Origin: a virus
Lineage: Duplodnaviria > Caudoviricetes
Reading direction: 5' to 3' (one strand)
DNA length: 64,000 bases
IMG/VR virus record: IMGVR_UViG_3300045747_000505
Of this stretch, positions 4,648 to 62,954 are shown in pieces (within the stretch, counting starts at the first letter, position 1; every line of letters begins with the position of its first letter). Both the position numbers and the translations under genes were made by a program. The notes under the pieces are model-generated. The model was not told the origin of the DNA. It saw nothing but the letters and a program-made list of their open reading frames with translations, and searched no databases.

Positions 4648-4802
4648 ACGCGAAGCAGCTAGCGAAGGTCGCGTGGTTCGTCCATCGAACGGGCTGTGAT
4701 GCCGCCGAGGCTGAGAAGTTCCTGAAGGAGGCGAAGTTCAGAATCGACGAAGCCATCAAGCTTCGGCGCGACCACTGGCAGCGAGTGTACAGTAAATCGT
4801 AA
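4644..4802 (+). CDS. Small UBA-like (EF-Ts N-terminal-like) protein, 52 aa
   Basis: Translated by hand: MNAKQLAKVAWFVHRTGCDAAEAEKFLKEAKFRIDEAIKLRRDHWQRVYSKS; GTGA overlap with the DnaE-like stop. Confidence 0.5.
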   Translation: MNAKQLAKVAWFVHRTGCDAAEAEKFLKEAKFRIDEAIKLRRDHWQRVYSKS

Positions 4803-4847
4803 CGCCGCTCAGTCGTTACACTCTGAACCCGCAGGCTGGTGTATAAT
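4799..4847 (+). promoter_or_regulatory. GTAAC/GTTAC-box promoter (representative of about 14 copies)
   Basis: GTAAC-N11-GTTAC-N22-TATAAT; see findings for other copies. Confidence 0.75.
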
Positions 4848-4873
4848 GACTCAACGTCAACAAGGACACCACC

Positions 4874-5116
4874 ATGAAGTCTGCCACCAAAGTCGCCCTG
4901 TTTGCCTACCTTGAAGCCCTCAAGGCCGAAGGCTTCACGCACATTCATGCTGGTAGCGTCATCCCAATGCGCGCCGGACAAGCTGCCGTCGAAGCCAGGT
5001 GGACGCAATTCCCGCTGATCGGCGAGACCGAGCTGCCCGAAGGCATCTTCTACGATCGCCTGAGCGGCTGGTTCTTCTTCGATGAAGTCATGTACCTCAA
5101 GGTTCAAGTTCGCTAA
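4874..5116 (+). CDS. Hypothetical protein
   Basis: AAGGA RBS, upstream TATAAT promoter. Confidence 0.7.
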   Translation: MKSATKVALFAYLEALKAEGFTHIHAGSVIPMRAGQAAVEARWTQFPLIGETELPEGIFYDRLSGWFFFDEVMYLKVQVR

Positions 5117-5126
5117 GGAGCCGCCC

Positions 5127-5348
5127 ATGGCAATCACGAGCATGACCATTCGCGGTCTCGTTGATGAGGACGGCGACACCGTTATTCGCAACGTTGACGC
5201 CGCGACGCTGGTCCACTTTCTCAGCTACACTTGCAGCGAGGTGGCGGCGATGAGCTCAACCGAGTTCTTCTTCGCTGCTCTCAACTATCTCGAGATGTAT
5301 ACAAGCATCGCTGACACCGACTCCGCCAAGATCGACACGTGGTACTGA
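5127..5348 (+). CDS. Hypothetical protein
   Basis: AAGGAG RBS then ATG 5127. Confidence 0.65.
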   Translation: MAITSMTIRGLVDEDGDTVIRNVDAATLVHFLSYTCSEVAAMSSTEFFFAALNYLEMYTSIADTDSAKIDTWY

Positions 5349-5416
5349 ACCTCGATAAACCCACTTCACATCGGCTCATTGTGTGGTAGAATGATCTTCT
5401 CTACACGAAGGAGCCC

Positions 5417-5587
5417 ATGATGAGTAAGAAGCGATTGAAGGCCTGGGCCAATGGCGAGATCGATCTCGAGGACATGACCACTAAGGAGATCAAGTACGTA
5501 CTCGAGCTGGTCTTCACGAAGGTGACCGAAATCAAGTTCGCTCGCCCTGGTGTTGTCGTCTACGGTCAGCACTCGACGGTGCAGTAA
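5417..5587 (+). CDS. Small hypothetical protein (56 aa)
   Basis: AAGGAG RBS; MMSKKRLKAW...HSTVQ; TAATG overlap with next gene. Confidence 0.65.
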   Translation: MMSKKRLKAWANGEIDLEDMTTKEIKYVLELVFTKVTEIKFARPGVVVYGQHSTVQ

Positions 5588-5904
5588 TGGCCCACACGCT
5601 CGAGGAATACGAGGCCCAAAAGGGCTGGTCAAGCGAGTTGTTCGCTGACCACGCTGGTCAGCTGATGCGCGAGCTCATTGACCTTGGCGTGCGCGTCACC
5701 ATTCATCGCACGGTCATTCACCTGCGTGGCAAGACCGGCTCGATCAAGGCCTACGTTCATCACAACGGCCGCTCACCCGAGTGGGCAACGCTGACGAATT
5801 GGCGTGGCGAGGAGCTCGGCTCCTTTCACCACACCGACTTTGATCAATTGGCTGCTTCGGTGAAGTGTGCCATTCTGGAGAGTAAATACTGGGTTACAGT
5901 TTGA
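5587..5904 (+). CDS. Hypothetical protein
   Basis: Coupled ORF, phage codon usage. Confidence 0.65.
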   Translation: MAHTLEEYEAQKGWSSELFADHAGQLMRELIDLGVRVTIHRTVIHLRGKTGSIKAYVHHNGRSPEWATLTNWRGEELGSFHHTDFDQLAASVKCAILESKYWVTV

Positions 5905-5967
5905 AGTGTAACATCGCCCCCTCGTTACACCTGAACTCTGTACAGTGGAGTACAATGAGCACCTGAT

Positions 5968-6252
5968 TTGGAAGGGACTTTGAAAGTGAAGATTGTCTAC
6001 GAACCGCTGCCCGCCGGCATCAAAGCTCACAAGTTCTATCCGGGCGAGCGCTGCGTCCTCATCGACGACAAGCACCTCGCGGTTTGGGTCGACAATCAAC
6101 TCATTCAAGCCGACCGTCCACTCCCGCAAAACAGCGGCTACCTGCGCGTCACCAACGAGCCGTTGCCCTCCATCCTCTACGCCCACCACACTCAAATTGC
6201 CCACATCGCTCGCGAACGCATCACCCTGCCGTTCGCACTAAAGGAGTTCTGA
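5968..6252 (+). CDS. Hypothetical protein
   Basis: Downstream of promoter at 5951; TGATG overlap with next gene. Confidence 0.6.
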   Translation: MEGTLKVKIVYEPLPAGIKAHKFYPGERCVLIDDKHLAVWVDNQLIQADRPLPQNSGYLRVTNEPLPSILYAHHTQIAHIARERITLPFALKEF

Positions 6253-7298
6253 TGAAAGACGTTCTGTTTCAAGTGACCTACGGGTCGCGCCTCTACGGCA
6301 CCAACACGCCCACCTCGGACACCGACCTCAAGTCCGTGTTTCTGCCAGCCATAGACGACCTGCTGCTCGGGCGCAAGCTCGGCACCTCCAAGACGCGCGT
6401 GCACAGCGACGGGTCGCCAGTGCCCGACAAGAGCTCGATGCCTGACAACGGCGTGGAGCACGAGTACTTCCCGCTTCAGACCTTCGTGCGCGACTTCGTG
6501 CAGGGTCAGACGTACGCGCTCGAGATGGCGTGGGCGGTCCTCGCCAACGGGCCGGATGGCCACACTCTTCAAGCGGCTCGTGAGCACGAGCTGATGGTCG
6601 AGCTGGTCGAGAAGTTCGGCAACTGCTCGGTGTACTCGATGGTCAGCTTCGCGATGAAGCAGACGTTCGACTACGTGAAGCGCGGTGAACGGCTGGAGCA
6701 GGCTCGTGAGCTGCTCGACGTGCTGAACGTCTGCATGGAGATGTTCGACTGTCTCGACGCAATGGACCCAGGCAGCTATCTGAACCCGCGCCTCGACACC
6801 GTGCTGCCCGACGGCGAAAAGCTCCTTCACAAGCTGTCTCGTGAAACCAACCTCGAGCTCGGCACCAGCGTGAACAACAACCGCGCCTTCGAGACGCTGA
6901 AGCTCAACGGCCGTGAGTACCTCGAGACTACGGCGGTGTCACACCTCGTGCTCGCCGTGCAGAAGCTGGTCAGCGAGTACGGTGAGCGCACCAATCGCGC
7001 TGCGAAGGAAGTTGTCGACTACAAGTCGCTGAGCCACGCGGTGCGCGTCTATGAGCAGGCTCTCGAGCTGCTGGACACCGGCCGACTGACGTTCCCACGT
7101 CCGAACGCCGACTACCTGCGCTCAGTGAAGCAGGGTCTCGTGCCGCTCGAAGAGGTGAAGGCTCGACTGCTCGAGCTGGACGAGGAAGTCCTCGCCAAGC
7201 AAGAGAGCTCTACTCAACGTCGCAAGACGCCAGAGCTGGTCGAGGCATCGGAAGAATGGTTGCTGACGAAGCTCCGCCAGCTGTACCTTCTTGACTGA
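6252..7298 (+). CDS. Pol-beta superfamily nucleotidyltransferase (RlaP/Nuc-transf-like)
   Basis: YGSRLYGTNTPTSDTD (GS...DxD) motif; AAGGAG RBS; C-terminal helical domain with KSLSHAVR. Confidence 0.85.
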   Translation: MKDVLFQVTYGSRLYGTNTPTSDTDLKSVFLPAIDDLLLGRKLGTSKTRVHSDGSPVPDKSSMPDNGVEHEYFPLQTFVRDFVQGQTYALEMAWAVLANGPDGHTLQAAREHELMVELVEKFGNCSVYSMVSFAMKQTFDYVKRGERLEQARELLDVLNVCMEMFDCLDAMDPGSYLNPRLDTVLPDGEKLLHKLSRETNLELGTSVNNNRAFETLKLNGREYLETTAVSHLVLAVQKLVSEYGERTNRAAKEVVDYKSLSHAVRVYEQALELLDTGRLTFPRPNADYLRSVKQGLVPLEEVKARLLELDEEVLAKQESSTQRRKTPELVEASEEWLLTKLRQLYLLD

Positions 7299-7764: not shown

Positions 7765-7917
7765 ACTGGCTCCTACTGATTTGTGTCTCCTATTTATTGG
7801 TTCGGGACCGCCCTCTTTCAGGACGAGGGCGTTACAGGTTCAGGGGCGTTACACTTGACCGATGTACAAACCCTAGGTTCGCATTATAATGACTTCATCG
7901 TCAACTGGAGATCAACC

Positions 7918-8250
7918 ATGTCTACCGTCACCCTGAACAGCCTGATGTCCCAGATCAAGACCCTCTCGATCGCCGACCAGCGCGCTCTGAACAAGCTGCT
8001 CTGCGCGAATCTGAAGGCCGCCATGAAGGTCGCCGCAGTTGGCAAAGCCATCACGTTCGACATCGGCGACAAGGTCGTGTTCGACGCCAAGACCCGTGGC
8101 ATCATCAACGCCGAGATCATCGGCTTCAGCCGTGACCTGTCCAAGATCAAGTGCAAGCAGATTGGTGGCCTCCGCCCCGGCTGCCTGTGGACCGTCACCG
8201 CCAACCTCGTGACGACCGCCAAGGCTCTCACAGCCGCTCTGCCGAAGTGA
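7918..8250 (+). CDS. Hypothetical protein (SH3/KOW-like beta-rich C-terminus)
   Basis: GGAG RBS, promoter ATGTAC-N17-TATAAT; FDIGDKVVF motif. Confidence 0.75.
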   Translation: MSTVTLNSLMSQIKTLSIADQRALNKLLCANLKAAMKVAAVGKAITFDIGDKVVFDAKTRGIINAEIIGFSRDLSKIKCKQIGGLRPGCLWTVTANLVTTAKALTAALPK

Positions 8251-8535
8251 GGAAACCGTGAGCCTCCGCAAAGCCATCTCCAACTGGTTTCTCGCCTCGT
8301 GGTGGTTCGTGCCACCGACGCAGCCGGTCTACGTGCCACCGCCGAAGCCGAACCTGACCGTGACACGTCACACTCGGCCTCGCTGCCCGACCGGTCCAGC
8401 CCGAGGCGTCTACATTCAGCGCTGATCGTTACAGACCCTGAAAATTGTTACACCTCAGGGTCAACACTTCGTCCTAAAAAGGGATATAGTAACACTTGTC
8501 GAAAGACTTGTTCCACAACCTCACCGGAGTTCATC

Positions 8536-10116
8536 ATGTCAGTCAATCGCTTCGCTCGCCTTTCCCTCGTCGCCTCGGCCGTTTGCGTCCTGGCCGCGTG
8601 TGGTGGTGGCGGTGACGGTGGCTCGACGAGTTCCTCACCCGCTCCTGTCGGCAACGCCCCTGTGTCCAACGCGCCGGTCGTCGATAGTCCCGTGTCCAAC
8701 CCGCCTGTTGTCGCTGGCCCCACCCTCTTCAAGCTTCGTCTCAACGGCGTCGCCTTCACCAGCCGCGACACCCTCGTCAAGACCACCAGCGCCCCCACGG
8801 TAGCCGCCGCCAGCACCCGCGCCCACGCCATGGGCGTCGACAAGGACCTGCCCGAGCTGGAAGGTGCCGAACACGACTTCACGAACACCGTTCGCGAAGG
8901 TCTGCTCTCTGGCCTTGGAACTTCGCTCGTCGACGTCGACGGCAAGGAAGTTCCGTGCAAGCTGAGCAAGGCCAACATCGAGGTCACCAACCTCTTCACG
9001 ATGAACTACGCCACGGGCGACATGATCGCCACGATTCTGGCGCCGAGTCAGGTCAATCTGATCACTCGCAACGAAGTCACCAAGTGCCACGTCTCCTACG
9101 AGCAGCACGACTACGTCATCACTGGCGCTGGCAAGGTCATCAAGGCCGACGAGCTCCGAATCTACGACATCAAGGATGTGCTGGCCGCTCACGACGACGC
9201 CTTCAACACCTCCGGCTCCGCCGTGCTGTACTACAACGACTTCATGTACCGCACGCTCGAGGTCACGGCCGACACCGCTCAACTCGTCGATCTGACCCAA
9301 GCCAACGCTCCGATCCTCACCGAGCGTGGCCGAGTCGTCTACGACGGCACGTACCTCATCGGTCAAGCTGCCTTCATCGAAGGCAAGTTCTACCCGCGCG
9401 ACGACACGACTCACGGCTCGCTCATCGTCTACCAACGCAACTCCGCCAAGTTCGGCATCATCTGGGCCAACACCAGCCGCCACTACGGCCTCTTCATCGG
9501 CACCGATGGCAAGACCTATCTGAACGAAGGCCGCACCGGCTCTGGTGATGGTCCCGAGTTCGACGGCATGCACACGCTGGACCCAGCCGGTCTGATGGCT
9601 GGAACCTCCAACGGTCGTGGCCCGGTCTTCATGCCGCCTGAGCTGACGATGCCCGACGGTGGCTGGGACTACACCAGCGAGGTCGCGCTGCTGCCCGAGG
9701 TTGCTCCCGGCCCCATCGGTGGTCGAGTTGGTGAGTGGGTCATCGGCAACAACTGCCAACCGTGGAACATGCGCACTGGCCAGACCGCGAAGGTGATGAC
9801 TCAGCCCACTTGGACTCAGCCGAACTACGCTCGCGTCATCGACGGCAAGCTGCTCTGCGTCTCGAACGGCAGCAACGAGTTCGTTCAGCATGACCTGATC
9901 ACGAACCAAGCCTCGAAGATCAATCTGGGCGACAAGGGCTACATGGTCGGCAAGTACAAGATGTACGCTGACCGTGCGATGGTCGAGGTCCTCGACACGC
10001 AAACCGCCGACCGCAAGTACGTCAACGTCGACTTCAGGACCGGCACCGTCAAGAACCTCGGTGTGATCAGCGGCGATTCACGCAAGGTCGTCGACCTCCT
10101 CTCTGCTGGCAACTGA
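8536..10116 (+). CDS. Large lipoprotein (526 aa), probably beta-propeller-like
   Basis: Signal peptide with lipobox LAAC then GGGG linker; CCGGAG RBS; P/S-rich linker followed by a beta-rich domain. Confidence 0.8.
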   Translation: MSVNRFARLSLVASAVCVLAACGGGGDGGSTSSSPAPVGNAPVSNAPVVDSPVSNPPVVAGPTLFKLRLNGVAFTSRDTLVKTTSAPTVAAASTRAHAMGVDKDLPELEGAEHDFTNTVREGLLSGLGTSLVDVDGKEVPCKLSKANIEVTNLFTMNYATGDMIATILAPSQVNLITRNEVTKCHVSYEQHDYVITGAGKVIKADELRIYDIKDVLAAHDDAFNTSGSAVLYYNDFMYRTLEVTADTAQLVDLTQANAPILTERGRVVYDGTYLIGQAAFIEGKFYPRDDTTHGSLIVYQRNSAKFGIIWANTSRHYGLFIGTDGKTYLNEGRTGSGDGPEFDGMHTLDPAGLMAGTSNGRGPVFMPPELTMPDGGWDYTSEVALLPEVAPGPIGGRVGEWVIGNNCQPWNMRTGQTAKVMTQPTWTQPNYARVIDGKLLCVSNGSNEFVQHDLITNQASKINLGDKGYMVGKYKMYADRAMVEVLDTQTADRKYVNVDFRTGTVKNLGVISGDSRKVVDLLSAGN

Positions 10117-10237
10117 CCATCGTAAGGTGTAACAGAGACGAAAAACTGTTACACCTTCGAACCAACAGCTGAACCAAAAAGAGGATATAGTAACACTTGT
10201 CGAAAGGCTCGTCTCAACAACCTCACCGGAGCTCACC

Positions 10238-10975
10238 ATGTCTGCCACCCTTCGCCTTGCCATTGTCGCCTCAGCCGTTCTCGCCCTGTCCGCTTGCGGA
10301 GGTGGCGGCAGCGGTTCGACGGCTTCTTCAGCCCCCACAGTCGTGGCGCTGAGCGACGTCACTGGCGTCTACACCAGCGGCGATGACACGGTCATCCTCG
10401 CGTCCGACAACACCTACTGGAGCGTTGGCCAAGTGGTTGACACCGGCGGCTTCTCCGTGGATGCTGCCGGTCGCTTCGAGAGCTGGAACTACAACGTTGG
10501 TGATGGTAGCTGGCAACCAGCCGGCACGGTCAGCGCCAGCGGTCTGACGTACACCAAGAGCGGTGAATCCTTCACTCGCGTTCCGAGCAACAGCGCCGTG
10601 TCTGGCGCCATCGGCAACCTTGTCCCGGCAACATACCCGCTGACCGGCGCGATGTTCAACTCGGCCGTCGTCGACACTGGAGCGGTCTATCTGGTTGTGG
10701 CCGGTAACGACTTCATTCACGGCAACATGGGTGGCTGTGGCTTCACCGGCACCGTGAAGAACACTGGCCGTGGCTACTCCAGCGTCGTCATCAAGATGGC
10801 TGGTGTTGATCTGAACAATCCCGATGCTTGCATCTTCCCGAGCGCACGGTTCGAGGGAGTTGCCTCCTTCAACATCACGACCGGCAAGTTCACCTTCATC
10901 ACGCGGAACCTGTCTGCCCCGAACGCCATCTTCTTCGCCGAAACCCCCAAGGGTCCAGTCGACCCGACCCTGTAA
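10238..10975 (+). CDS. Lipoprotein (245 aa)
   Basis: Lipobox LSAC-GGGGS; leader duplicated from the upstream lipoprotein gene. Confidence 0.8.
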   Translation: MSATLRLAIVASAVLALSACGGGGSGSTASSAPTVVALSDVTGVYTSGDDTVILASDNTYWSVGQVVDTGGFSVDAAGRFESWNYNVGDGSWQPAGTVSASGLTYTKSGESFTRVPSNSAVSGAIGNLVPATYPLTGAMFNSAVVDTGAVYLVVAGNDFIHGNMGGCGFTGTVKNTGRGYSSVVIKMAGVDLNNPDACIFPSARFEGVASFNITTGKFTFITRNLSAPNAIFFAETPKGPVDPTL

Positions 10976-10988: not shown

Positions 10989-11051
10989 GGTGTAACGATT
11001 TCAGGATCGTTACACCTTTCGGTTGTACGAAATCCCAGGATGATGTATAAT
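10989..11051 (+). promoter_or_regulatory. DNA ligase promoter with perfect 11-bp inverted repeat operator
   Basis: GGTGTAACGAT-N6-ATCGTTACACC, then TTGTAC-N17-TATAAT. Confidence 0.8.
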
Positions 11052-11078
11052 GGACACATCCACTCTTCGAACCTGATC

Positions 11079-12392
11079 ATGACCAACTTCGCACAAGTCA
11101 TTCAAGCCTGCCAGGATGCCAACGGCGCCGGCTCCAAGGCCACCATCGCTGCAACCCTCGCCATGGCGGACAAGGACGCTCGTGACCTGATCATCGCTGC
11201 GATGAACCCTTACGCCACCTACGGCGTCAAGCAGTACGACATGCCGACGACCTGGCAAAAGCCCGGCTACTGTGGCGTTGGCCAGATGTTCGACCTGCTT
11301 CAAGCCCTCGAATCACGCTCGCTGACCGGCGATGCCGCCCGTGCTGCCGTGACCGCCAACCTGGCTCTGTTCGATGAGACGCTCGGCACCATGCTGACGC
11401 GAGTGCTGGACAAGGACCTTCGCGCCGGCTTCAGCGCTTCGACCGCCAACAAGGCCTGGGAGAAGGCTGGCTTCGAGGAGCGCGTTCCCGAGTTCGACGT
11501 GATGCTCGCCGACAAGTGCGAGGACACCGCCGACTTCGAACGGTACGTCACGTTCCCGTGCCAAGCGGACTGGAAGTACGACGGTCAGCGCACCATCTGC
11601 ATCGTCCGTCAAGGTCAGCCGGTCGAGTACCGCTCGCGCCCTGGCCTGATCATGGAACATCTGGCTGGCATCTACGACGCTGACCTGATGAACATTCGGT
11701 ACAACCTCGGCTACGACTTCGTCATGGACGGTGAATCGTTCGCCGGTGACTTCACCGAAACGATGAACGCCAAGAAGTCCGGCAACGACGCCGCCAAGGC
11801 TGCCCTTCGTCTTCGTGCCTTCTTTCTGATGCCGCTCACCGACTGGATGGCTCAGAAGACGACGATCACGATGCGTCAGAACCGTCTCGCCCTCGATTAC
11901 CTGATCACGCACGCAAACTGCAAGCGCATCGAGATCAGCAAGGGTCGCGAGGTCAAGGACTTTCAGGACATGACCGAGTACTGCAACCACGTCATCGACG
12001 TCGAGAAGCAGGAAGGTCTGATTCTGAAGGAGTGGGACGCCGTCTACACGTGGGACCGCTCGTTCGCCTGGACCAAGGTCAAGCGCTTCTACGACGTCGA
12101 TGCTCGCTTCATCTCGTTCTACCCCGGCAAGCCGAAGTCGCGCCTCGCCAACACGGTCGGCGGTGCCAAGTGCGTCGCCTTTCTGGAAAGCGGTGAGCGC
12201 GTCGAGTTCGACGTCGGCTCTGGCTTCAGCGACAAGCAGCGCGACGACATGCGCGACAACCCCGCCAAGTGGCTCGCCGCGACGCACGTCATCAAGTATC
12301 AAGACGTCTCGCGCTCGAAGAACAAGACGGTCGCCTCCCTTCGCTTCTGCACGTACCAACACAGCCGCGACGACAAGCTCGTCGAGATCTGA
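11079..12392 (+). CDS. lig: ATP-dependent DNA ligase
   Basis: Motif I KYDG, motif III DGE, motif IV EGLILK, motif V KVK, OB-fold VGSGFS. Confidence 0.95.
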   Translation: MTNFAQVIQACQDANGAGSKATIAATLAMADKDARDLIIAAMNPYATYGVKQYDMPTTWQKPGYCGVGQMFDLLQALESRSLTGDAARAAVTANLALFDETLGTMLTRVLDKDLRAGFSASTANKAWEKAGFEERVPEFDVMLADKCEDTADFERYVTFPCQADWKYDGQRTICIVRQGQPVEYRSRPGLIMEHLAGIYDADLMNIRYNLGYDFVMDGESFAGDFTETMNAKKSGNDAAKAALRLRAFFLMPLTDWMAQKTTITMRQNRLALDYLITHANCKRIEISKGREVKDFQDMTEYCNHVIDVEKQEGLILKEWDAVYTWDRSFAWTKVKRFYDVDARFISFYPGKPKSRLANTVGGAKCVAFLESGERVEFDVGSGFSDKQRDDMRDNPAKWLAATHVIKYQDVSRSKNKTVASLRFCTYQHSRDDKLVEI

Positions 12393-14268: not shown

Positions 14269-14656
14269 CATCATTCAATTCAGACCTCGCGTAGCGCCAC
14301 CAACATTTGCGGTGCTGCGCGAGCGTGCCGTCGAGGATATTACTTCTGATTGGGAGCGCTTCGCGCACGATAATCACCTCAACGATTACTTCATTCAAAG
14401 CGTTCCGCAGTGGACCGAAATCGGTCGCAATTACCTGGGCGATTTGAATTTGATTAGCGTCGTCGAGCAGAAGGTCAAGCTCGACCTGCAAATTACAGCA
14501 CCCTCCTACGACGGCGAGCGTCTCGGCTGGACGGCGTCCTTTGGGCTTTTCGAGTACGGTCTGACTGTCACTCCACCGATGGTCTTCGAAACGTACGCTC
14601 GCTGTTTTGCCGTGCTGCTCTTCCTTCGGTTGAAGCGTGACCTGTTGAAGTTGTAA
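14261..14656 (+). CDS. Hypothetical protein
   Basis: TTG start, MADIIQF N-terminus. Confidence 0.65.
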   Translation: MADIIQFRPRVAPPTFAVLRERAVEDITSDWERFAHDNHLNDYFIQSVPQWTEIGRNYLGDLNLISVVEQKVKLDLQITAPSYDGERLGWTASFGLFEYGLTVTPPMVFETYARCFAVLLFLRLKRDLLKL

Positions 14657-14726
14657 CAACCCAACTTCGTTACACCTGGATTGCAGGTTCGGTGTATAAT
14701 GGCTCAACGCCTACCGGAACCCAATC

Positions 14727-15823: not shown

Positions 15824-16101
15824 CCAAGTTCACCGAAGCTGAACAAGCCGCGCTTGATTGGCTTGTTTACGAAGGCGGCAGCATGCTCGTCTCGAAGATC
15901 CCTGACCGAAACGAGGTCGATGGCGTCTTTCGTAACATCACGCCCGGCCTGCCGGTGTTTCGCAAGCTCGAGAAGCGTGGCCTCCTCTACTTCACCGAGG
16001 GTGAAGAGCTCAAGCTGGACGATGGTTCAATTTTTCAATTTACGCCGGACGTCTACCTCGTAACAGATCCGTCAGGATGTTACACCTTTCAAGTAGCCTG
16101 A
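15820..16101 (+). CDS. Hypothetical protein (winged-helix-like)
   Basis: GTGA overlap; FRKLEKRGLLY. Confidence 0.55.
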   Translation: MTKFTEAEQAALDWLVYEGGSMLVSKIPDRNEVDGVFRNITPGLPVFRKLEKRGLLYFTEGEELKLDDGSIFQFTPDVYLVTDPSGCYTFQVA

Positions 16102-16128
16102 ACCGCCTTTTCGTGATAGAATGACATC

Positions 16129-17538
16129 ATGCAAACGGAGATCACAATGACTGATGCACTCAATGCCCAACTCGCCGACGCGCTCACCACGCTCGGCGCC
16201 GCCATGGAAGAACGCAACCTTCGCCAACTGGTTAGCGTCCGCACCATCGACCGTCTCGAACCCATCGAAGGCGCCGACCTGATCGAGCTCGCCGTGATCG
16301 GTGGCTGGAAGGTCGTTGTCAAGCGTGGTGAGTTTCAACCGCTCGACCAGTGCGTCTACTTCGAGATCGACTGCTTCCTCCCCGATGGCAATCCGGCCTG
16401 GCAATTCCTGGTCGACAAGTCCAGCCGCCTGTTTCAAGGCGTCAAGGGTCACAAGTTGCGCACCATCAAGCTGCGCGGCCAGATCAGTCAGGGCCTGATC
16501 CTGCCGATCGACGCTCTGCCGGTCGTTGCCTACGTTGCGGCCACCGGCGCCGTTGGCCGCAAGCACCTCGGTGCCATGCTGACCGACGAAGTTCGCAACG
16601 AGGCTGACACGCTCTGCCAAGTCATCGGCATGAAGGACGACGAAGGTGTCGAGACCGAGGTCACCGACTTCGACTTCGCCAGCCTGCTCGGTGTCGTCAA
16701 GTGGGAAGCCGAGCTGCCCGCCTGCCTGGCTGGTCAAGCTCAAGGTCTGTTCCCGAGCTTCATTCGCAAGACCGATCAAGAGCGCTGCCAGAACCTGGTT
16801 GGCGAGATCTTCGGCTACGATGACCGGCTGGTTCCGTTCGACGTCACGCCGCTGATCCCTGAAGCGCTGGCTGCTCTGCAAGAGCAAGGCATTCTGAAGC
16901 AGGTCGATGGCGAGTGGTTCAAGCTCCTGAAGGCCAAGGCCGACCGTGACGCTCGCTACGAGATCACGATGAAGCTCGACGGCAGCAGCACGACGTTCTT
17001 CCACCGCGACGGCGAGGTCGGTGTTTGCAGCCGCAACCTGCAGCTCAAGATCAGCGAAGAGAACGCCGAGAACAGCTTCGTTCGCATGCTGTTCGACAGC
17101 GGCCTGAACTGGGCTCTGCCGACGCTCGGCAACGTCGCCATTCAAGGCGAGCTGATGGGTCCTGGCATTCAAGGCAACCGTGAGAACCTGAAGCAGTTCG
17201 AGTTCTTCGTGTTCGACGTGCAGCTGATCGACGAAGGTCGCTTCATGACCGCCGACGAACGGATGGCGCTGATGAACCAGCTGGCTCGAATTGGCGTCAA
17301 CATGGGCATCGTCCATCACGCTCCGGTGTTCGACGGCAAGAAGTTCGTCAGCGACTTCATCACGCCGACCTTCACGCTGGACGAGCTGGGCATCACCGAT
17401 GTCGCTGGACTGCTGAAGTTCGTCGAAGGTCCGAGCCTGAACCACGCCATCCGTGAAGGTGACGTCTTCAAGCGCGACGACGGCAAGTTCAGCTTCAAGG
17501 GAATCAACAACCTGTTCCTGGCCAAGGAGAAGGAATGA
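16129..17538 (+). CDS. RNA ligase (Rnl2/DRB0094-like) with N-terminal OB-type domain
   Basis: Motif I KLDGSS, QGELMGPGIQGN, FFVFD, EGDVFK, SFKGINNLFL. Confidence 0.92.
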   Translation: MQTEITMTDALNAQLADALTTLGAAMEERNLRQLVSVRTIDRLEPIEGADLIELAVIGGWKVVVKRGEFQPLDQCVYFEIDCFLPDGNPAWQFLVDKSSRLFQGVKGHKLRTIKLRGQISQGLILPIDALPVVAYVAATGAVGRKHLGAMLTDEVRNEADTLCQVIGMKDDEGVETEVTDFDFASLLGVVKWEAELPACLAGQAQGLFPSFIRKTDQERCQNLVGEIFGYDDRLVPFDVTPLIPEALAALQEQGILKQVDGEWFKLLKAKADRDARYEITMKLDGSSTTFFHRDGEVGVCSRNLQLKISEENAENSFVRMLFDSGLNWALPTLGNVAIQGELMGPGIQGNRENLKQFEFFVFDVQLIDEGRFMTADERMALMNQLARIGVNMGIVHHAPVFDGKKFVSDFITPTFTLDELGITDVAGLLKFVEGPSLNHAIREGDVFKRDDGKFSFKGINNLFLAKEKE

Positions 17539-28792: not shown

Positions 28793-29314
28793 ATGGCCAC
28801 GCACCTCATTCCGACCGTCGGCGCCACGTGGACTCGCGCCACCAAGGTCGACGGCCTCAAGGCCAAGCACATGGGCGCTCTGCTGACGGACAACACCGTC
28901 GTCAGCAAGTTCCTCATCGACACGATCGAGGGTGAGGAGCCCATCGAGCCGACGAACATGTTCTGCATCGGCGTGACGAATGATGCGTGGCAGCAGCCGC
29001 CGCGAAAGCTGCTGCGCAAGTACGACGTCATCGACGTCACACCCGACGGTTGGCTCGTCTGCGTACCGAAGCCTGACAACCGCATCGACTACTTCACGCT
29101 CACGCTCGAGCACGTCTCGAAGTTCGTCGACGCTCGCATGGGTGACACGTTCGTCATTCAAGGCATCTACGGCAAGACCATGCCTGGCCTAGGCGAGAAC
29201 ATGCAAGAGCTCGTCATCGGCGATGCCATCTGCCGCCAGGTCAATGAGTTCACCGACCAGTGGGTCGTCGAGAAATCGCTGTTCGCCAGGTCCTACAAAG
29301 ATGTAACGACCTAA
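28793..29314 (+). CDS. Hypothetical protein
   Basis: Phage codon usage, fills the gap. Confidence 0.7.
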   Translation: MATHLIPTVGATWTRATKVDGLKAKHMGALLTDNTVVSKFLIDTIEGEEPIEPTNMFCIGVTNDAWQQPPRKLLRKYDVIDVTPDGWLVCVPKPDNRIDYFTLTLEHVSKFVDARMGDTFVIQGIYGKTMPGLGENMQELVIGDAICRQVNEFTDQWVVEKSLFARSYKDVTT

Positions 29315-29418
29315 CCTAAACTGTTACGCTTTCGACCCAACCAGGATCTCGAAAGCGTGGTATAATCACTCAACGCTCTGAAAGCGCTTTCCATCAACCT
29401 ACCCAAGGAACTTTCCAC

Positions 29419-30593: not shown

Positions 30594-33365
<2,772 letters not shown>

Positions 33366-33411
33366 GGCGTGATCAACGGGGAGGCTTCGGCCTCCACTCA
33401 CTGAGCCAACC

Positions 33412-39483: not shown

Positions 39484-40137
39484 ATGACGACCAAGGTTCA
39501 CTACCTCTACAAGACTGTCTGTCAAGCGACTGGTCGGTTCTATGTAGGAATGCACAGCACTACGAACATCGACGATGGATACATAGGTTCAGGTGACCTG
39601 TTGCAAGCGTCCGTCAAAAAATACGGCAAAGCGGCGCATGTAAAACAGATCCTCGAGATGCTCCCGTCTCGTGAGGCGCTGAAGCTCGCCGAAAAGGCGC
39701 TGATCACCGAAGACCTTCTAAAGGATCGTCGGTGTATGAATGTTGCACCAGGCGGAGGAGGCGGGCGACACGCCGGCTTTACGCATGATGAGGCCACCAA
39801 ACAGAAGATCGGCAAGAACACCCGTTCGCGCGACACGATGGTTCGTGAGAAAATATCTCGTGCGTTGGTTGGACGCACCAACGATGAACATTCTGCTCGC
39901 CAACTCGCCAGGTTTGCAGACAAATCCAATCATCCAAAAACCAAAACGCTGTGCTTGACATCGCCGGATGGAGCTTCTGCATCATTCGTTGGCTACGAAG
40001 CATTTTACACTCGATGCAAAGAGCTCTCAATCTCTGCAACGCGATTGATCAAGTTCTTTGGATCCGCAGTGCCAGACGGCACTGTCAAGGGCGGTAAAAC
40101 CGTCACACATAATACCATTGGCTGGAGCCTCAAATGA
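39484..40137 (+). mobile_element. Free-standing GIY-YIG homing endonuclease (Seg-like) with NUMOD3-type motif
   Basis: YLYKT...FYVGMHST...DGYIGSG; NVAPGG; HDEATKQKI; more A-rich codon usage than neighbours. Confidence 0.85.
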
Positions 40138-51513: not shown

Positions 51514-51596
51514 GCGTTACAACTGTTACAGACGCGTAGCGTCAACCTTGGAGTATAATGGCCTCATCGACAACAAGTCTTTGAGGCCATTCTCGT

Positions 51597-51866
51597 ATGC
51601 AACTCTCACACTCCGACCTTCAGGTCTATCGTCTCCTGACCGATCCACTCGTCGGCGAAGGACCAGGCGAATACTTTCGTCGGCAGCGCGACACGCTCGC
51701 CGTGCAAGATGTCGGCAACGCCGAGTTGATTCGCCTCTGCAACGTTCGTCGTCAAGCCGACTACGTCGAGGGCCTCGTCGAGCGCCTCAAGGCGAAGGAT
51801 GCTGGTACCCTCGACGCGCTGGTTGAAGCCGTCGTTCTCCTCCTCAACACTCAATACAAGCCATGA
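51597..51866 (+). CDS. Hypothetical protein
   Basis: GAGG RBS after TATAAT promoter. Confidence 0.65.
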   Translation: MQLSHSDLQVYRLLTDPLVGEGPGEYFRRQRDTLAVQDVGNAELIRLCNVRRQADYVEGLVERLKAKDAGTLDALVEAVVLLLNTQYKP

Positions 51867-53221: not shown

Positions 53222-53895
53222 TGCCAACCGCCCAGCTTCGCTCGCTGGCTGCCAAGTCAGACAAGACTCTTGGTGACCTCGAGCGCTACTGGGCAGACGC
53301 CAAGGTTGAAGCTCATCACAAGTTCAAGAAGAAGGACAAGCACTTCTGGGCCTACGTCGTCGGTATCGTCAAGCGCCGCGCTGGGCTGAGCGAAGAGGAC
53401 ATCAGCTTCAAGACCTATCTGCTCCTCATCGAGGACGACAAGGCGCACGGCAAGGCTCTCGAGCGAACAGGCTTCTGGGGCAAGGCTGGTGCGGGTTGTA
53501 TCATTTTAGCTCGGGACACGGGAAGAATCTGCCTGCCGAAGCGAAGCAAGGACGTGGAGCAACCACACACTTGGGGAACTTGGGGTGGCGCTATCGACGG
53601 AAGAGAGGCGCCTAAGGCCGCTGCAGAGCGCGAGGTCCGTGAGGAAGCTGGATATACAGGCAAGCTCGAAATCGTTCCCCTGTACGTTTATAAGCATCCC
53701 AGTGGCTTCACCTACCACAACTTCCTGGCCATCGTGGACAAGGAGTTCGAGCCAGAGCTGAACTGGGAAACGTCGACCTACCGTTGGTGCTCGCCAACGA
53801 AGCTGCCGTCGCCGCTGCACTTCGGTCTGAAGGGTCTGCTTGCCGACGCCGCAAGCTGGCAGAAGATCAAAGACGCTCAACCTAAAAAGACGTAG
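53221..53895 (+). CDS. Nudix hydrolase with N-terminal helical domain
   Basis: Nudix box GGAIDGREAPKAAAEREVREEAG. Confidence 0.88.
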   Translation: MPTAQLRSLAAKSDKTLGDLERYWADAKVEAHHKFKKKDKHFWAYVVGIVKRRAGLSEEDISFKTYLLLIEDDKAHGKALERTGFWGKAGAGCIILARDTGRICLPKRSKDVEQPHTWGTWGGAIDGREAPKAAAEREVREEAGYTGKLEIVPLYVYKHPSGFTYHNFLAIVDKEFEPELNWETSTYRWCSPTKLPSPLHFGLKGLLADAASWQKIKDAQPKKT

Positions 53896-53924
53896 CCTGA
53901 AGACTGAGACATAGAGTAAAATAC

Positions 53925-54256
53925 AGACATGGGTGCTACAGCCATTCTGTAGTGATTGTTGTAATTCGGAGCAAGTTGAAGGATTCTGGACGCGGGTTCG
54001 ATTCCCGCCAGGTCCACCACAAAACACATACCGCCGGCTGTAGAATTCGGCAACACCTTAGGGACGATCCACGTGGTGTGTGTTTTGTAATGGGCCTGAC
54101 CTGGTCTCGACAGGGTTACGGAGATGCGCACACGCAACACGAGAGTCGACCGACGTAATCGGCGAAAACACGCTAAGTGCAAACGAAGCAAACTTCCGTC
54201 TGGCTGCTTAATACCCAGCTCACGGTGAGGCTAACCACCTTATAAAGCAACGGTGA
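53925..54256 (+). ncRNA. ssrA: Circularly permuted (two-piece) tmRNA; tag ANEANFRLAA*
   Basis: 3' acceptor piece GCGGGTTCGATTCCCGC-CAGGTCC-A-CCA ends at 54019 and precedes the 5' piece GGGCCTGAC-CTGGTCTCGAC at 54092; G3.U70 pair; tag frame 54179-54211; outer ends approximate. Confidence 0.9.
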
Positions 54257-54282
54257 GGACAGGACACTTCGGTGTCCTGTCC
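54257..54282 (+). terminator. Hairpin after tmRNA coding piece
   Basis: GGACAGGACAC-TTCG-GTGTCCTGTCC. Confidence 0.75.
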
Positions 54283-54306: not shown

Positions 54307-54795
54307 ATGCGCAAGCTGCTCGCCGCTCTCATGCTCACCCTCTCGCTGGGCGCTGCTGCCCAGTCGGAGCCGCATGTTCAGATCGGCGCAGCAGACTTCA
54401 CGGTCTTCAAGGTCTATCCGAACTTTGCGCTGCTCTTCGACCGCGAGTCGATGCATGGTGATGCCAACACCGGCGACGCGGTGATGACGATCAAGATTCA
54501 CCTGAAGTCCCCAGACCCAAGGCTCGTGCCGAAGTTTCCGGTCAAGTTCCTCGTCAACACTCTCTTCATCGAGTGCGAGAAGGATCAAGTCACGGTGCTG
54601 GTCAGCCAGATGTATGACGATGAGAATGACCTCGTCGGCATTCGTCGATACTACCCGCCCATTTCGAACCCACACTCAGAAGGTGCGCCGGCCACTGAGG
54701 TCCTCGACTTCGCCTGCGCCTCGAATCCGAAGTACCCGAACAAGCGTAACACGCCTATAATTGTTACACCTGACGATGACCGGAATGGTGTATAA
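54307..54795 (+). CDS. Secreted protein (surface-adhesin-like small beta protein)
   Basis: Signal peptide MRKLLAALMLTLSLGAAA; two Cys. Confidence 0.75.
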   Translation: MRKLLAALMLTLSLGAAAQSEPHVQIGAADFTVFKVYPNFALLFDRESMHGDANTGDAVMTIKIHLKSPDPRLVPKFPVKFLVNTLFIECEKDQVTVLVSQMYDDENDLVGIRRYYPPISNPHSEGAPATEVLDFACASNPKYPNKRNTPIIVTPDDDRNGV

Positions 54796-54816
54796 TAGCC
54801 TCATGGAATCACAAAA

Positions 54817-54891
54817 GCGTCGTTAGCTCAATGGTAGAGTACGGGCCTCTAAAACCCAGGGTTATCGGTTCGATCCCGATACGACGCACCA
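54817..54891 (+). tRNA. tRNA with CUA anticodon (amber suppressor), tRNA-Lys-like body
   Basis: Acceptor GCGTCGT/ACGACGC-A-CCA, D-arm GCTC/GAGT, loop CT-CTA-AA (CTA 54849-54851), T-arm ATCGG-TTCGATC-CCGAT; anticodon stem has only 3 Watson-Crick pairs. Confidence 0.85.
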
Positions 54892-55442: not shown

Positions 55443-55617
55443 AGTCATCAAAGCAAGAGACAAGGCCGTGTGGAAGGTCAAGCTCGACAAGAAGCTGGTC
55501 GGTGAGATTCGCTTTCTCAATCCAGGCTTTCAGTACTTTCCGCGTGGCTCGAAGGAGGGTGGCGGTGTGCTGCCCTCGCTGAACGCCGTCATCAAGTCGC
55601 TCGAGGACTATTCCTGA
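55435..55617 (+). CDS. Small hypothetical protein
   Basis: GGGGA RBS; MIEVIKARDK... Confidence 0.55.
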   Translation: MIEVIKARDKAVWKVKLDKKLVGEIRFLNPGFQYFPRGSKEGGGVLPSLNAVIKSLEDYS

Positions 55618-55764: not shown

Positions 55765-56151
55765 ATGATCATGTAGATCCGCACTTCCAAAACCTACCTC
55801 TACGCAATCACACGCCGCGATCTCCCACTCGCGCAACAGGCTGTTCAAGCTGGCCACGCCGCCATTGAGCACGCTTACCAACATGGTCGTCCGCACGATC
55901 ATCATCCGTCGTACATCAAGCTGACGACGCGAGACAAGGCCGCTCTTCTCGAGCTTCAGGCCACGCTTGCCACGCACGGCATTCAAACCGCAGAATTTCA
56001 CGAGCCATACAAAGCTTGGGGCCTCACCGCAATCGCCTGTCTTCTCGGCGAGGAACAACGCTGTCTGTTACGACAGTTACAGCTTTGGACCACGCAGAAT
56101 GCTCAGGTTCGTGATACAATGGACACATCAACCACTCGGAGTTTCTCATGA
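55765..56151 (+). CDS. Peptidyl-tRNA hydrolase type 2 (Pth2)-like protein with in-frame TAG at codon 4 (missed by the ORF track)
   Basis: ATG ATC ATG TAG ATC CGC...; KTYLYAITRRDLPLAQQAVQAGHAAIE...FHEPY...GLTAIA; TGA overlaps the next ATG. Confidence 0.75.
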
Positions 56152-56627
56152 CTCATCCCCTCGTTACCAAGTGCCTCGCCGCTCAGGCCGAGGTCGACAG
56201 CATCGTAGCCCTGCTCAAGGGAAATAGCAAGCACCAGATCGACATCATGAAGGAGCTCATCGAGCGCGCCGACATGCCCGAGATCAAGCTGGACAAGCGC
56301 TTCGCTGGTCTCTTCAGCTACGACTACATCGAGATCGAGGTCTCCAGCGCTGGCCGCGCCTCCTTCAGTGTCTGGGAGGATGCCTACGCCGATATCCCGG
56401 AGGAGAACGTCGGTGAGTTCGACCTCAGCGAGCACATCCTCGACGGTCGTGACGACGACTTCCGGCTCGAGTACGAAGCCTACGTGGCTCGGATCGCCGA
56501 GGCCTTTCGTGAGCGCGCGTGGATTCAGCGCGACGCCGAGATCGCTCGTGCTCGCGCCACCCTCGACCAGCTCGAGCGGCAGCGCGAAGCCATCATCGCC
56601 CACGGCCCCATCAGGATCAAGTCATGA
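56148..56627 (+). CDS. Hypothetical acidic protein with C-terminal coiled coil
   Basis: CGGAG RBS after TACAAT promoter. Confidence 0.75.
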   Translation: MTHPLVTKCLAAQAEVDSIVALLKGNSKHQIDIMKELIERADMPEIKLDKRFAGLFSYDYIEIEVSSAGRASFSVWEDAYADIPEENVGEFDLSEHILDGRDDDFRLEYEAYVARIAEAFRERAWIQRDAEIARARATLDQLERQREAIIAHGPIRIKS

Positions 56628-57344: not shown

Positions 57345-57397
57345 TCACAACCGTCCGCGCACTTCTAATAGCATTAGTTGGCAAATAAGGAATTGCA

Positions 57398-58534: not shown

Positions 58535-58558
58535 GACCCCGAACCTAGATATAGAGCC

Positions 58559-58620: not shown

Positions 58621-58665
58621 CAACCCATCGTGTTAAAGAGAGCCCTCACACAATAGGGCTCTCAC

Positions 58666-59633: not shown

Positions 59634-59635
59634 AC

Positions 59636-61207: not shown

Positions 61208-61221
61208 CTTCAAGGACTTCA

Positions 61222-61542
61222 ATGATCATCAAGTGTCTCAAGCTCATCGGCGGTGAAGAAATCGTCTTCGACTATCAAGGTACCGCCACCGTCGAGGGCG
61301 TTCGCTGCCACATCGTGCAGAACGTCGTCGCCTTTCAGATGCTGCGGCATCCAGAAACCGGTCAGCCGATGGAGGCCTTCGGTGAGTGGCCGAAGCTGGC
61401 GCAGCCAGGTCAGGTTCAGCATATCCCTCTGACCTCGGCGATAAATATGCCGTTGGACGCCAACGAAGAGCTGGCTCGTCACTATCAACAATCCATCACC
61501 GGCATCAGCCTGCCACCGACCCCGAAAATTCTGCTCAGCTAA
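61222..61542 (+). CDS. Conserved-type T4-like small protein (Sm-like)
   Basis: IKCLKLIGGEEIV...Y.QSITGISLP. Confidence 0.7.
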   Translation: MIIKCLKLIGGEEIVFDYQGTATVEGVRCHIVQNVVAFQMLRHPETGQPMEAFGEWPKLAQPGQVQHIPLTSAINMPLDANEELARHYQQSITGISLPPTPKILLS

Positions 61543-61551
61543 GGAGACCGC

Positions 61552-61788
61552 TTGAACTACGCCGCCATCATGAACGCTCTGCCGAAGGACGTTGCCACGC
61601 TTCTTCAACGCCACCTGGATGCCATGGAGATCGACTTTCTCGCTCCAGACCTCGTCCACTCGCTTGTTGTCGAAGCCGTCGAACGGACCAAGACGGAGAT
61701 GACCGTTGATGCCGGCGTGCGTGGCATGGTCGAAATGCTGCTTGGGCAGATGCCAGACGCCGCCGTTCAAGTGCTCTGCATGTCATGA
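61552..61788 (+). CDS. Hypothetical protein
   Basis: AAGGAG RBS then TTG. Confidence 0.6.
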   Translation: MNYAAIMNALPKDVATLLQRHLDAMEIDFLAPDLVHSLVVEAVERTKTEMTVDAGVRGMVEMLLGQMPDAAVQVLCMS

Positions 61789-61964
61789 GCATTGAGGATC
61801 AAGTAGCTGCGCTGATCAAGAAGCACGACGAGCAGGCGCGACGCCTTCACCTTGCCGAGCTTCGTCTGAAGGCGCACGTTGCCAAGCTGGAGGAGCAGGC
61901 AAGACGCATCGCAGCTCTTCAAGCTTCGGTCACGGCGCTCTCTCAGCGGGTCAGCCGATCCTAA
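61785..61964 (+). CDS. Small coiled-coil protein (59 aa)
   Basis: ATGA overlap; heptad pattern. Confidence 0.55.
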   Translation: MSIEDQVAALIKKHDEQARRLHLAELRLKAHVAKLEEQARRIAALQASVTALSQRVSRS

Positions 61965-61994
61965 TCAGGACCCTCCACAGTTTCCGCAATCCCG

Positions 61995-62002
61995 TATAAA
62001 TA
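61995..62002 (+). promoter_or_regulatory. T4-type late promoter TATAAATA; related ATAAATA at 13032, 49739, 52427, 57891 and TAAATA at 63816
   Basis: Exact T4 gp55 consensus in an intergenic position; variants sit at gene boundaries. Confidence 0.55.
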
Positions 62003-62146
62003 GAACATCAGCTCAGGAGATACCCTTCCGTGTCCTACTCGTCCTTGTCATCGCTAGCCTATTGCTCACCACTGGTGGGTAGTGGCGCGCCTACACTTGG
62101 ACCACGCAGAGGTTCCCAACGATAAGAGATCACTAAGATCCAATCG

Positions 62147-62178
62147 AACGGGAACCCTCGAAAGAAGGTTCCCGTTTT
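62147..62178 (+). terminator. Rho-independent terminator
   Basis: AACGGGAACC...GGTTCCCGTT-TT. Confidence 0.7.
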
Positions 62179-62202
62179 CGTATCTGTGTGATACAATAGA
62201 AC

Positions 62203-62808
62203 ATGTCTAAATTTTACGCCTACATTTATAGAGACAACGAGGTTCCGTTTTATGTTGGTAAGGGAACAGGCAATCGTGCCTATCTTCATCTTACCGACCG
62301 AAGAGGATCACACTTTACAAATAGGGTTCAGCGTCTCGTAAGAGAAGGTCGAGCCCCGACAATAGAAATCATCGAAGCGCTGGACGAGGACCACGCCAAG
62401 TTTTTAGAAGTTTGTCTCATCGAGGTCATTGGTCGTGCCGACCTTGGCAAAGGAACATTGTTGAACCTAACCGATGGTGGCGATGGTAGAACAACTTGGT
62501 CTGAAGAACAGAAACGGCATCACTCTGAAAAAATGACGGGACAGAAGAGAACGGAAGAAACCAAAAGACTGATGTCTGAAGTACAATCGCAGATACCAAG
62601 ACAGAAGGCAAAACCAGGCGAAAAGAAACGAGGACCAGCGAAAGGAACGAAGTACGCAAATCGTGTCAACGGAACCTTTAGCGACGAACATCGACTAAAG
62701 TTGGCGCAATCTCAAACCGGAAAAACGCATTCGCCTGAGACCCGTGCCAAGATCGCAGAGACACGGCGGAAGACAGAAGAACGAAAGAAGATGTTACAGA
62801 CAACCTAG
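62203..62808 (+). mobile_element. Free-standing GIY-YIG homing endonuclease with NUMOD3-type repeats
   Basis: YAYIY...FYVGKGTGNR...H...GTLLNLTDGGDG; HSEKM, HSPETRAKIAE; A-rich. Confidence 0.85.
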
Positions 62809-62954
62809 GTCGTTACAAAAAAGTGATGTACAGGGTCTGAGAACATGATAGAATAGCTTCATCGGTTGGAAATACAAGCTCTCACAAATCTTGTTACGAA
62901 CAACCTGAGACGTTACAAAAAAGTGGTGTACAATCGATAGGATTATGTTATAGT
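62793..62954 (+). promoter_or_regulatory. Two tandem sigma70-like promoters, 100-bp period, each with a GTTAC pair
   Basis: GTTAC-N14-GTTAC-N9-(A/G)TGTAC-N17-TAGAAT/TATAGT at 62793 and 62893. Confidence 0.8.

Follow-up and report, generated by a model that had tools for sequence, protein, structure and literature searches.

In a 64,000-nt stretch of the IMG/VR virus record IMGVR_UViG_3300045747_000505 (Duplodnaviria; Caudoviricetes), here called the window, 14 promoters carry a GTTACA box at one of two fixed distances upstream of the -10 hexamer. We propose that these boxes are probably activator sites, forming an accessory upstream element on promoters of the T4 early type that would be read by the sigma70 RNA polymerase of the host. 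The set of boxed promoters can fairly be described as a regulon. No published description of the element was found in the literature, and new here are a census of the element across genomes, its optional status on a TGTACA core, its examples in the cultured Ralstonia phage RsoM2USA, its parallel to PhoP-type promoters, and negative searches for phage-encoded readers.

GTTACA boxes occupy two phased positions

GTTAC is not over-represented in the window as a whole (46 copies, 46.0 expected). Pairs of GTWAC lying 6-22 nt apart numbered 15, compared with an average of 0.56 and at most 4 when sites were placed at random 5000 times, and a TAnAAT hexamer was found downstream of every pair. Eight pairs are inverted (GTAAC-N11..15-GTTAC, starting at 4799, 5908, 10129, 10992, 14653, 16060, 29303, and 54746) and six are direct (N4..14, starting at 7831, 8428, 51516, 56067, 62793, and 62893). 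Counted between the first base of the proximal GTTAC and that of the -10, the distances fell into a short class (26-29 nt) and a long class (36-39 nt), 10-11 bp apart. Five sites belong to the short class (4815, 5924, 14669, 51525, and 54763) and nine, at 37-39 nt, to the long class (7848, 8447, 10148, 11009, 16079, 29323, 56076, 62812, and 62912), while no window site fell at 30-35 nt and none was found on the minus strand. GTTAC gave 17 such positional matches, against an average of 0.55 for 60 permutations of the same 5-mer. Measured from the end of the GTTACA hexamer, the boxes stop 20-23 nt (short) or 31-33 nt (long) before the -10.

The promoter modules of the window are as follows.

4799..4854 (+): short class; distal GTAAC 4799, proximal GTTACAC 4815, -10 TATAAT 4842, inferred start A 4854; small open reading frame (ORF) 4874-5116
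5893..5963 (+): short class with three boxes; GTTAC 5893, GTAAC 5908, GTTACACCTG 5924, -10 TACAAT 5951; upstream of the RlaP-type nucleotidyltransferase region 6084-7298
7831..7897 (+): long class; direct GTTAC 7831, proximal box 7848, -35-like TGTACA 7863, -10 TATAAT 7885, inferred start 7897; ORF ~7918-8250
8428..8497 (+): long class; direct GTTAC 8428, GTTACACCT 8447, -10 TATAGT 8485; lipoprotein gene 8536-10116
10129..10198 (+): long class; inverted GGTGTAAC 10129, GTTACACCT 10148, -10 TATAGT 10186; paralogous lipoprotein gene 10238-10975; one of the two strong-hairpin pairs
10992..11058 (+): long class; palindrome GGTGTAACGAT..ATCGTTACACC (10992/11009), -35-like TGTACG 11024, -10 TATAAT 11046; ATP-dependent DNA ligase 11082-12392
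14653..14707 (+): short class; GTAAC 14653, GTTACACCTG 14669, -10 TATAAT 14695; small ORFs from 14727, with an HNH endonuclease gene beyond
16060..16129 (+): long class; GTAAC 16060, GTTACACCT 16079, -10 TAGAAT 16117; RNA ligase gene, start ~16147, end 17538
29303..29373 (+): long class; GTAAC 29303, GTTACGC 29323, -10 TATAAT 29361; ORF 29419-30078
51516..51566 (+): tandem direct boxes 9 nt apart at 51516 and 51525, -10 TATAAT 51554; both class distances; ORF 51597-51866
54746..54803 (+): short class; GTAAC 54746, GTTACACCTG 54763, -10 TATAAT 54791, inferred start 54803; tRNA(CUA) 54817-54891
56067..56127 (+): long class, tandem direct boxes 9 nt apart at 56067 and 56076, -10 TACAAT 56115; ORF 56148-56627
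62793..62861 (+): long class; direct GTTAC 62793, GTTACAAAAAA 62812, TGTACA 62827, -10 TAGAAT 62849; first of two tandem promoters of the tRNA array
62893..62961 (+): long class; GTTAC 62893, GTTACAAAAAA 62912, TGTACA 62927, -10 TATAGT 62949; second tandem promoter, first tRNA at 63357

The original prediction, made from the window alone, had described inverted and direct GTTAC pairs in two classes whose box ends lie 21-24 or 32-34 nt before the -10, about one helical turn apart. All of its box coordinates and geometries hold, its two ranges are the start-to-start distances given above counted at the same sites, and the excess of pairs, the empty interval between the classes, and the positional statistics against background all agree with it. 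The targets that it named were also borne out: the DNA ligase and the RNA ligase are supported by Pfam, the two lipoproteins have lipoboxes (LAAC and LSAC, each followed by a glycine run), and the tRNA with a CUA anticodon and the tRNA array lie downstream of boxed promoters. The two lipoprotein genes are paralogous, and the stretches 8485-8560 and 10186-10260 share a near-identical -10, start region, and 5' leader that includes TATAGTAACACTTGTCGAAAG. The tRNA at 54817-54891, of the amber suppressor type, has its own short-class GTTACA promoter. In GTAAC 14653, the TAA is the stop codon of the preceding ORF.

The proximal box reads GTTAC on the coding strand in 14/14 window sites and in all sites in relatives, whereas the distal box is flexible (19 direct and 18 inverted over the window and relatives). 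Pairs in the window are direct at 9 bp in 2/14 cases and inverted in 8/14, with 16-20 bp spacings. Aligned on the box, 44 long-class sites (window and relatives together) give the consensus GTTACA(M)(Y)TT, which is longer than five bases, and the 10 bp 5' of the proximal box contain no conserved base. At 51516/51525 the long-class and short-class positions are filled simultaneously. With transcription starts placed about 7 nt after the -10 hexamer, the proximal box would be centered near -46.5 (long class, spanning about -49 to -40) or -36.5 (short class, about -39 to -30), and the pairs at about -45 and -55.

The module is conserved in related phages

Modules of like build were found in relatives of the window. 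The related contig L012, whose proteins are 49-71% identical, contained six. The module was also present in 13 metagenomic loci (L088-L100) reached via the DNA ligase (47-71% identical; GC content 0.45-0.61), where 19 of 33 matches show a distance of exactly 37 nt between box start and -10. The pattern GTTACA-N8-10-TGTACA-N15-17-TAnAAT was matched in more than 119 viral contigs. Three complete genomes, G001 (IMG/VR 3300045996_002337, 350 kb), G002 (343 kb), and G004 (153 kb), whose clamp loaders share 63%, 52%, and 36% identity with that of the window, respectively, had 7-10 exact matches each, nearly all on one strand, and the reversed pattern used as a control gave none in these genomes. Distal boxes are mostly 19-20 bp away in G002 and 9-10 bp away in G004. 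The GTTACA hexamer is invariant over phages with GC contents of 0.41-0.61.

No cultured phage is a near relative of the window at the DNA level, and an exact 34-mer of the window had no match in the viral contig collection. Based on the clamp loader, the closest cultured phages are RsoM2USA (42%) and Pseudomonas phage PA5oct (40%). Transcription of PA5oct depends on host RNA polymerase (PMC7318152), and the annotation of RsoM2USA includes no RNA polymerase (PMC8504454). Three to five modules, each with a single box and a CATCAACAA-type start region downstream, were found in RsoM2USA (MG752970), among them those at 186184(+), 103169(-), and 53687(-), and PA5oct and Xoo-sp13 showed background-level box matches only. 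The many GTWAC pairs of Xoo-sp13 were rejected as modules, being coding Val-Thr-Pro-Thr repeats. More distant relatives reached via the split polymerase are without boxes, and the distant relative L082 has a plain T4-type GTTTAC-N17-TATAAT promoter with a start region as in the window. Comparison of orthologous ligase promoters showed gain and loss of modules, indicating turnover, with no clean footprint. As many related phages share this design, the boxes most likely serve to dock a transcription activator.

The box is an optional element on a T4-early-type core

Judged by its sequence, the core belongs to the T4 early type of promoter, used by sigma70 RNA polymerase of the host. It consists of a variant -35 TGTACA (TGTTCA or GTTTAC in some relatives), a 16-17 nt spacer that includes a GTG/TGn-like stretch, and TAtAAT. 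A conserved start region, CAT(C/G), lies 3' of the -10, and the seventh base past the hexamer is A in 11/14 window promoters. Short-class promoters have GTTACACCTG and a conserved TGGTG ahead of TATAAT and lack a -35 match. TGTAC is kept in four of the nine long-class window promoters (7848, 11009, 62812, and 62912), which are the four cases for which the original prediction had given the exact geometry GTTAC-N9-NTGTAC-N17-TAnnnT. The palindromic TGTACA is the standard -35 across this phage clade.

In G001, 46 TGTAC-N16-19-TAnAAT promoters were found on the coding strand and none on the opposite strand. Only 9/46 carry a GTTACA box, implying that the box is an optional accessory element that is regulatory and not part of core recognition; a second box is present on 0/9. 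In the lineage of the window, most promoters have either a GTTACA box or a second box type, and the GTTACA box is usually doubled. This doubling, together with the retention of TGTAC in less than half of the long class, suggests a stronger reliance on the box in this lineage. G001 also contains 10 copies of the T4-late-type TATAAATA, all on the same strand.

A second box at the same position

Seven window promoters have a GAACCT(A) box 39-40 nt before a TAnAAT -10, which is the position of the GTTACA box.

GAACCT(A) box starts: 5348 and 19765 (approximate), 22285, 25476, 27248, 49789, 55616, and 58576; 39374 at 43 nt

The box at 55616 precedes the same TGTACA -35. The GAACCT set drives different genes, namely those for an OmpA-domain protein, an ABC ATPase, a nicotinamide mononucleotide (NMN) adenylyltransferase/NUDIX protein, and nicotinamide phosphoribosyltransferase. 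The transfer-messenger RNA (tmRNA) is possibly under a GAACCT-type promoter; a AACCTAAAA box and TAGAGT lie immediately 5' of it. This box may be conserved too, given two more cases in L090 and the presence of similar boxes of the ACCT type in G001. The use of two alternative boxes at one position supports specific factors that define promoter sets. Across the window, GGTTC/GAACC is over-represented (194 copies, 129 expected; reached in 0/100 shuffles) and is frequently seen in the spacers of promoters, where AGGTT lies about 9 nt ahead of the -10.

Proposed mechanism and known parallels

We propose that a sequence-specific DNA-binding protein would bind the promoter-proximal box, about 10 bp of GTTACA(M)(Y)TT in a single orientation. 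The bound protein would stand beside the -35 in the long class or substitute for it in the short class, on the same helix face, and from there would contact RNA polymerase to give more initiation. A distal box in either orientation, 9-10 or 16-20 bp upstream, would add affinity or cooperativity. The fixed orientation, the tight distance, and the two positions one helical turn apart fit a protein that touches RNA polymerase in the manner of the PhoP/OmpR family, and a fixed proximal box with a flexible distal one fits a fixed polymerase contact with a flexible helper site. Anatomy, positional statistics, and conservation were observed directly; that the boxes activate rather than repress, and where transcription starts, we infer.

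In the CRP paradigm, class I and class II sites are found near -41.5, overlapping the -35, or at -61.5 and beyond, separated by integral helical turns. The one-turn phasing is the same here (26-29 versus 36-39 nt), but the inferred centers of single boxes and pairs lie elsewhere. The best documented parallel is the PhoP-activated promoters of Salmonella (Zwir et al. 2012, PMC3335776). In that regulon, a direct-orientation box lies 12 or 21-23 nt from the -10, an optional second box takes either orientation, and the farther position requires the alpha C-terminal domain (PMC3335776). Both systems have a fixed-orientation box at two -10 distances one helical turn apart, the nearer overlapping the -35 and the farther lying upstream, and the short-class end-to--10 distance of 20-23 nt corresponds to the 21-23 nt of PhoP architecture III. 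However, the box is GTTACA here and (T/G)GTTTA repeats there, and the conserved unit is a single hexamer and not a 17-nt double box. In addition, our main class lies one turn farther (31-33 nt), where direct-orientation PhoP boxes do not naturally occur.

The sites of OmpR at E. coli and Yersinia promoters (ompF, ompC, and ompR; PMC3050692) and of RisA in Bordetella (PMC11019879) share the identical hexamer, abutting the -35 on its upstream side in several copies per promoter, and their spacings recur as the 9-10 and 19-20 bp found in G004, G002, and part of the window. They differ in that the promoters here are phage promoters without a conserved 5' sub-element, with frequent 16-18 bp spacing and an often inverted distal box, and in that the complete relatives encode no OmpR-type protein.

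Like the promoters here, those of the T4 early class and of PeSL cassettes (Hinton 2010, PMC2988021; Arbiol et al. 2010, PMC2839356) are strong and use the host polymerase. Both have a -10 close to consensus, which is preceded by a variant -35 and a TGn-like stretch and followed by a conserved start region, with one more element where UP would lie, and both recur ahead of small accessory genes and tRNAs in a T4-related genome. TAnAAT, the variant -35, the CAT(C/G) start region, and repetition ahead of accessory genes were all found here; an A/T-rich UP element with a terminating stem-loop was not. The element of the window differs from theirs in being a GC-containing hexamer and not an A/T tract, optional in relatives, set at two phased positions, and not regularly accompanied by a stem-loop. 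The original prediction had also drawn an analogy to the T4 MotA box, (a/t)(a/t)(a/t)TGCTTtA, which has its center at about -30 and lies 11-13 bp 5' of the -10 (PMC2988021). T4 middle promoters, which rely on sigma appropriation with MotA and AsiA, do resemble ours as a phage promoter class that combines a sigma70 -10 with a specific upstream box. However, the MotA box replaces the -35, whereas the GTTACA boxes are centered near -46.5/-36.5 and many long-class promoters retain a -35-like TGTACA. The boxes match the MotA box in neither sequence nor position, and the analogy is not supported.

Candidate readers of the box

The tmRNA of the window (53884-54282) is a permuted, two-piece molecule of the betaproteobacterial type (Rfam beta_tmRNA, 140.6 bits; tag ANEANFRLAA), which points to a betaproteobacterial host. 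We consider it possible, and put it forward tentatively, that the reader is an unrecognised phage protein, perhaps delivered with the DNA; profiling at the BLAST level could miss a phage protein that is small and evolves fast. A host response regulator of the OmpR/PhoB family appears a rather doubtful reader, and yet a live candidate given the match of the hexamer to the OmpR/RisA half-site and the betaproteobacterial tmRNA. In chromatin immunoprecipitation sequencing, RisA, an OmpR-family protein of the betaproteobacterium Bordetella pertussis, has the consensus GTTACA (PMC11019879). The same hexamer is the 3' sub-element of OmpR sites, and the Yersinia ompR site terminates in GTAACAATTT (PMC3050692). 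The consensus of the window and its relatives contains the GT(T/A)ACA half-site of OmpR-type promoters, and GTTACAATTT, a 10-mer frequent in relatives, comes near the Yersinia sequence, with a mismatch at the central W. It seems unlikely that, in a whole clade of T4-related jumbo phages of Betaproteobacteria, the early and accessory promoters (those of DNA and RNA ligases, lipoproteins, tRNAs, and a suppressor tRNA) are controlled by an envelope-stress regulator of the host from the OmpR family, through boxes positioned as in porin promoters.

Several observations weigh against an activator. The OmpR-type Trans_reg_C domain was not found in the complete relatives (the search control was positive in 10/14 genomes). 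MotCF (PF09158) and AsiA (PF09010) had no match in G001, G002, G004, and RsoM2USA, in a search whose control genomes did not include T4 and whose control was silent. BLAST-level profiling for proteins present in these four genomes and absent from PA5oct and Xoo-sp13 returned only thymidylate-kinase-like and MazG-like enzymes and no transcription-factor candidate. The 16-18 bp spacings and inverted distal boxes are unlike the canonical 10-bp tandem register of OmpR, and the 10 bp 5' of the proximal box lack its conserved 'a' sub-element. A good core is already present in many boxed promoters, where activation may therefore be needless. It should be noted that most window pairs do not match the 20-bp OmpR site of two tandem direct 10-bp sub-elements, and that G004 (9-10 bp) and G002 (19-20 bp) come closer to it.

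Other searches for a reader covered the window and its relatives. A Pfam scan of about 70 window ORFs found no DNA-binding regulator, and there was only a weak gp55-like sigma region 2 match. A DsbA-like regulator (PF11126) was rejected because it is present in all six genomes and thus does not discriminate, and three small conserved G001 proteins had no PDB relative. The original prediction of a phage activator with class I/II logic therefore stands in part: orientation, position, and phasing support the activator logic, and its encoding by the phage is hypothetical, neither an OmpR-type domain nor a profiling candidate having been found. Together with the hexamer match and the tmRNA, these two negative results favor a host factor or the polymerase itself.

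When viral contigs were scanned for the palindrome GGTGTAAC-N9-15-GTTACACC, most matches were due to chance and were set aside, except for one real family of low-GC phages (GC content 0.25-0.34; L003, L017, L056, L062, L052, L073, and seven further loci). These phages have 3-6 GTTACACC boxes in both orientations, adjoining a gene for a ~750-aa primase-polymerase/DUF3987 protein with a C-terminal helix-turn-helix (HTH). The arrays probably represent the origin iterons of phages unrelated to those studied here, which share the hexamer by coincidence, and a profile of the C-terminal HTH had no match in the window. Since an unrelated iteron system uses GTTACA too, the hexamer alone does not identify the binding protein.

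Alternative explanations

Instead of a separate activator, RNA polymerase itself might read the boxes as a GC-tolerant equivalent of the UP element for its two alpha C-terminal domains, perhaps after a phage modification like that by T4 Alt. The first domain would adjoin sigma region 4, with the place of the second, farther upstream, able to vary. We regard both parts of this explanation as improbable. The long-class box does span the proximal UP subsite (about -49 to -40), one fixed and one flexible site mirror two tethered alpha domains, and a hexamer constant at GC contents of 0.41-0.61 fits a highly conserved reader, as does the lack of a phage transcription-factor candidate in the profiling. 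However, alpha domains recognise A/T tracts, and such tracts, not a specific GTTACA, are their known targets. The short-class box occupies the usual place of sigma region 4, most G001 core promoters of like type are unboxed, and the unrelated GAACCT box at the same position is a better fit for two specific factors. T4 early promoters, composed of UP, -35, TGn, and -10 elements with extra conserved regions and in some cases boosted by Alt, offer a precedent for the polymerase as reader (PMC2988021).

The boxes could also be operators of a phage or host repressor that silences the set later or under some host condition, which we find quite improbable. Some palindromic pairs (10992-11016 and 10129-10155) are typical of dimeric repressors, but direct repeats make up half of the pairs. 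Similarly, the short-class box overlaps the -35 region, but simple occlusion fails at the location of most boxes, 5' of the -35, and occlusion needs neither strict orientation nor one-turn phasing. The strong cores of boxed promoters may manage unaided, whereas the short class, without a -35, looks factor-dependent.

It is very improbable that the repeats are mainly structural, acting as PeSL-like cassette borders with hairpin terminators and recombination sites and with protein binding as a secondary matter: although the modules border small accessory and homing-endonuclease-like genes, are gained and lost at orthologous ligase promoters, and recall the PeSL cassettes known from T4-type phages (PMC2839356), strong folding was seen in only 2/14 pairs (-16 and -18 kcal/mol, z about -7), 6/14 are direct repeats incapable of forming a hairpin, single boxes keep an equal distance in G001 and RsoM2USA, and the conserved feature is the box-to-promoter distance and not the stem. 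No terminator-like site coincides with a box, and a general hairpin or terminator function was rejected on the folding and terminator scans.

Gene content of the window

The window has a GC content of ~0.6 and its genes are exclusively on the plus strand. It encodes a clamp-loader ATPase, a split Pol III fragment, the DNA ligase, the RNA ligase, a phosphoesterase, and HNH and GIY-YIG endonuclease-like proteins. The RNA genes are the permuted tmRNA, the tRNA with a CUA anticodon, and the beginning of the tRNA array. Auxiliary metabolic genes were found at 30594-34401, 40134-41279, 44214-45431, and 49893-51413. The set comprises a multicopper-oxidase-like protein (923 aa), a SCO1/SenC-cytochrome c fusion, an NMN adenylyltransferase with NUDIX, an adenylosuccinate synthetase, and a nicotinamide phosphoribosyltransferase of nicotinamide adenine dinucleotide salvage. 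The ORF 46929-49742 encodes a 937-aa protein with an FN3 domain. Its identification as an ADP-ribosyltransferase was not accepted, being based on a very weak, unconfirmed Scabin-like match (E 0.007), and its C-terminal part had no PDB sequence match.

Implications for jumbo phage transcription

Almost nothing has been mapped of how transcription is controlled in jumbo phages dependent on host polymerase. Here, a simple, countable promoter grammar, consisting of the box, the -35 TGTACA, the -10, and the conserved start, marks a large gene set. As this grammar is common to many uncultured freshwater phages and to the cultured RsoM2USA, the question of what reads the box can be tested directly. 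With a host response regulator of the OmpR family as reader, this would be a rare lytic phage regulon tied to a host signalling system: phage expression would be gated by the state of host two-component signalling, and phage DNA might, as it replicates, titrate the regulator and so turn the promoters down. A phage protein as reader would represent a new activator family alongside the T4-type early promoter. With either reader, the grammar aids the annotation of promoters and temporal classes in metagenomic jumbo-phage genomes.

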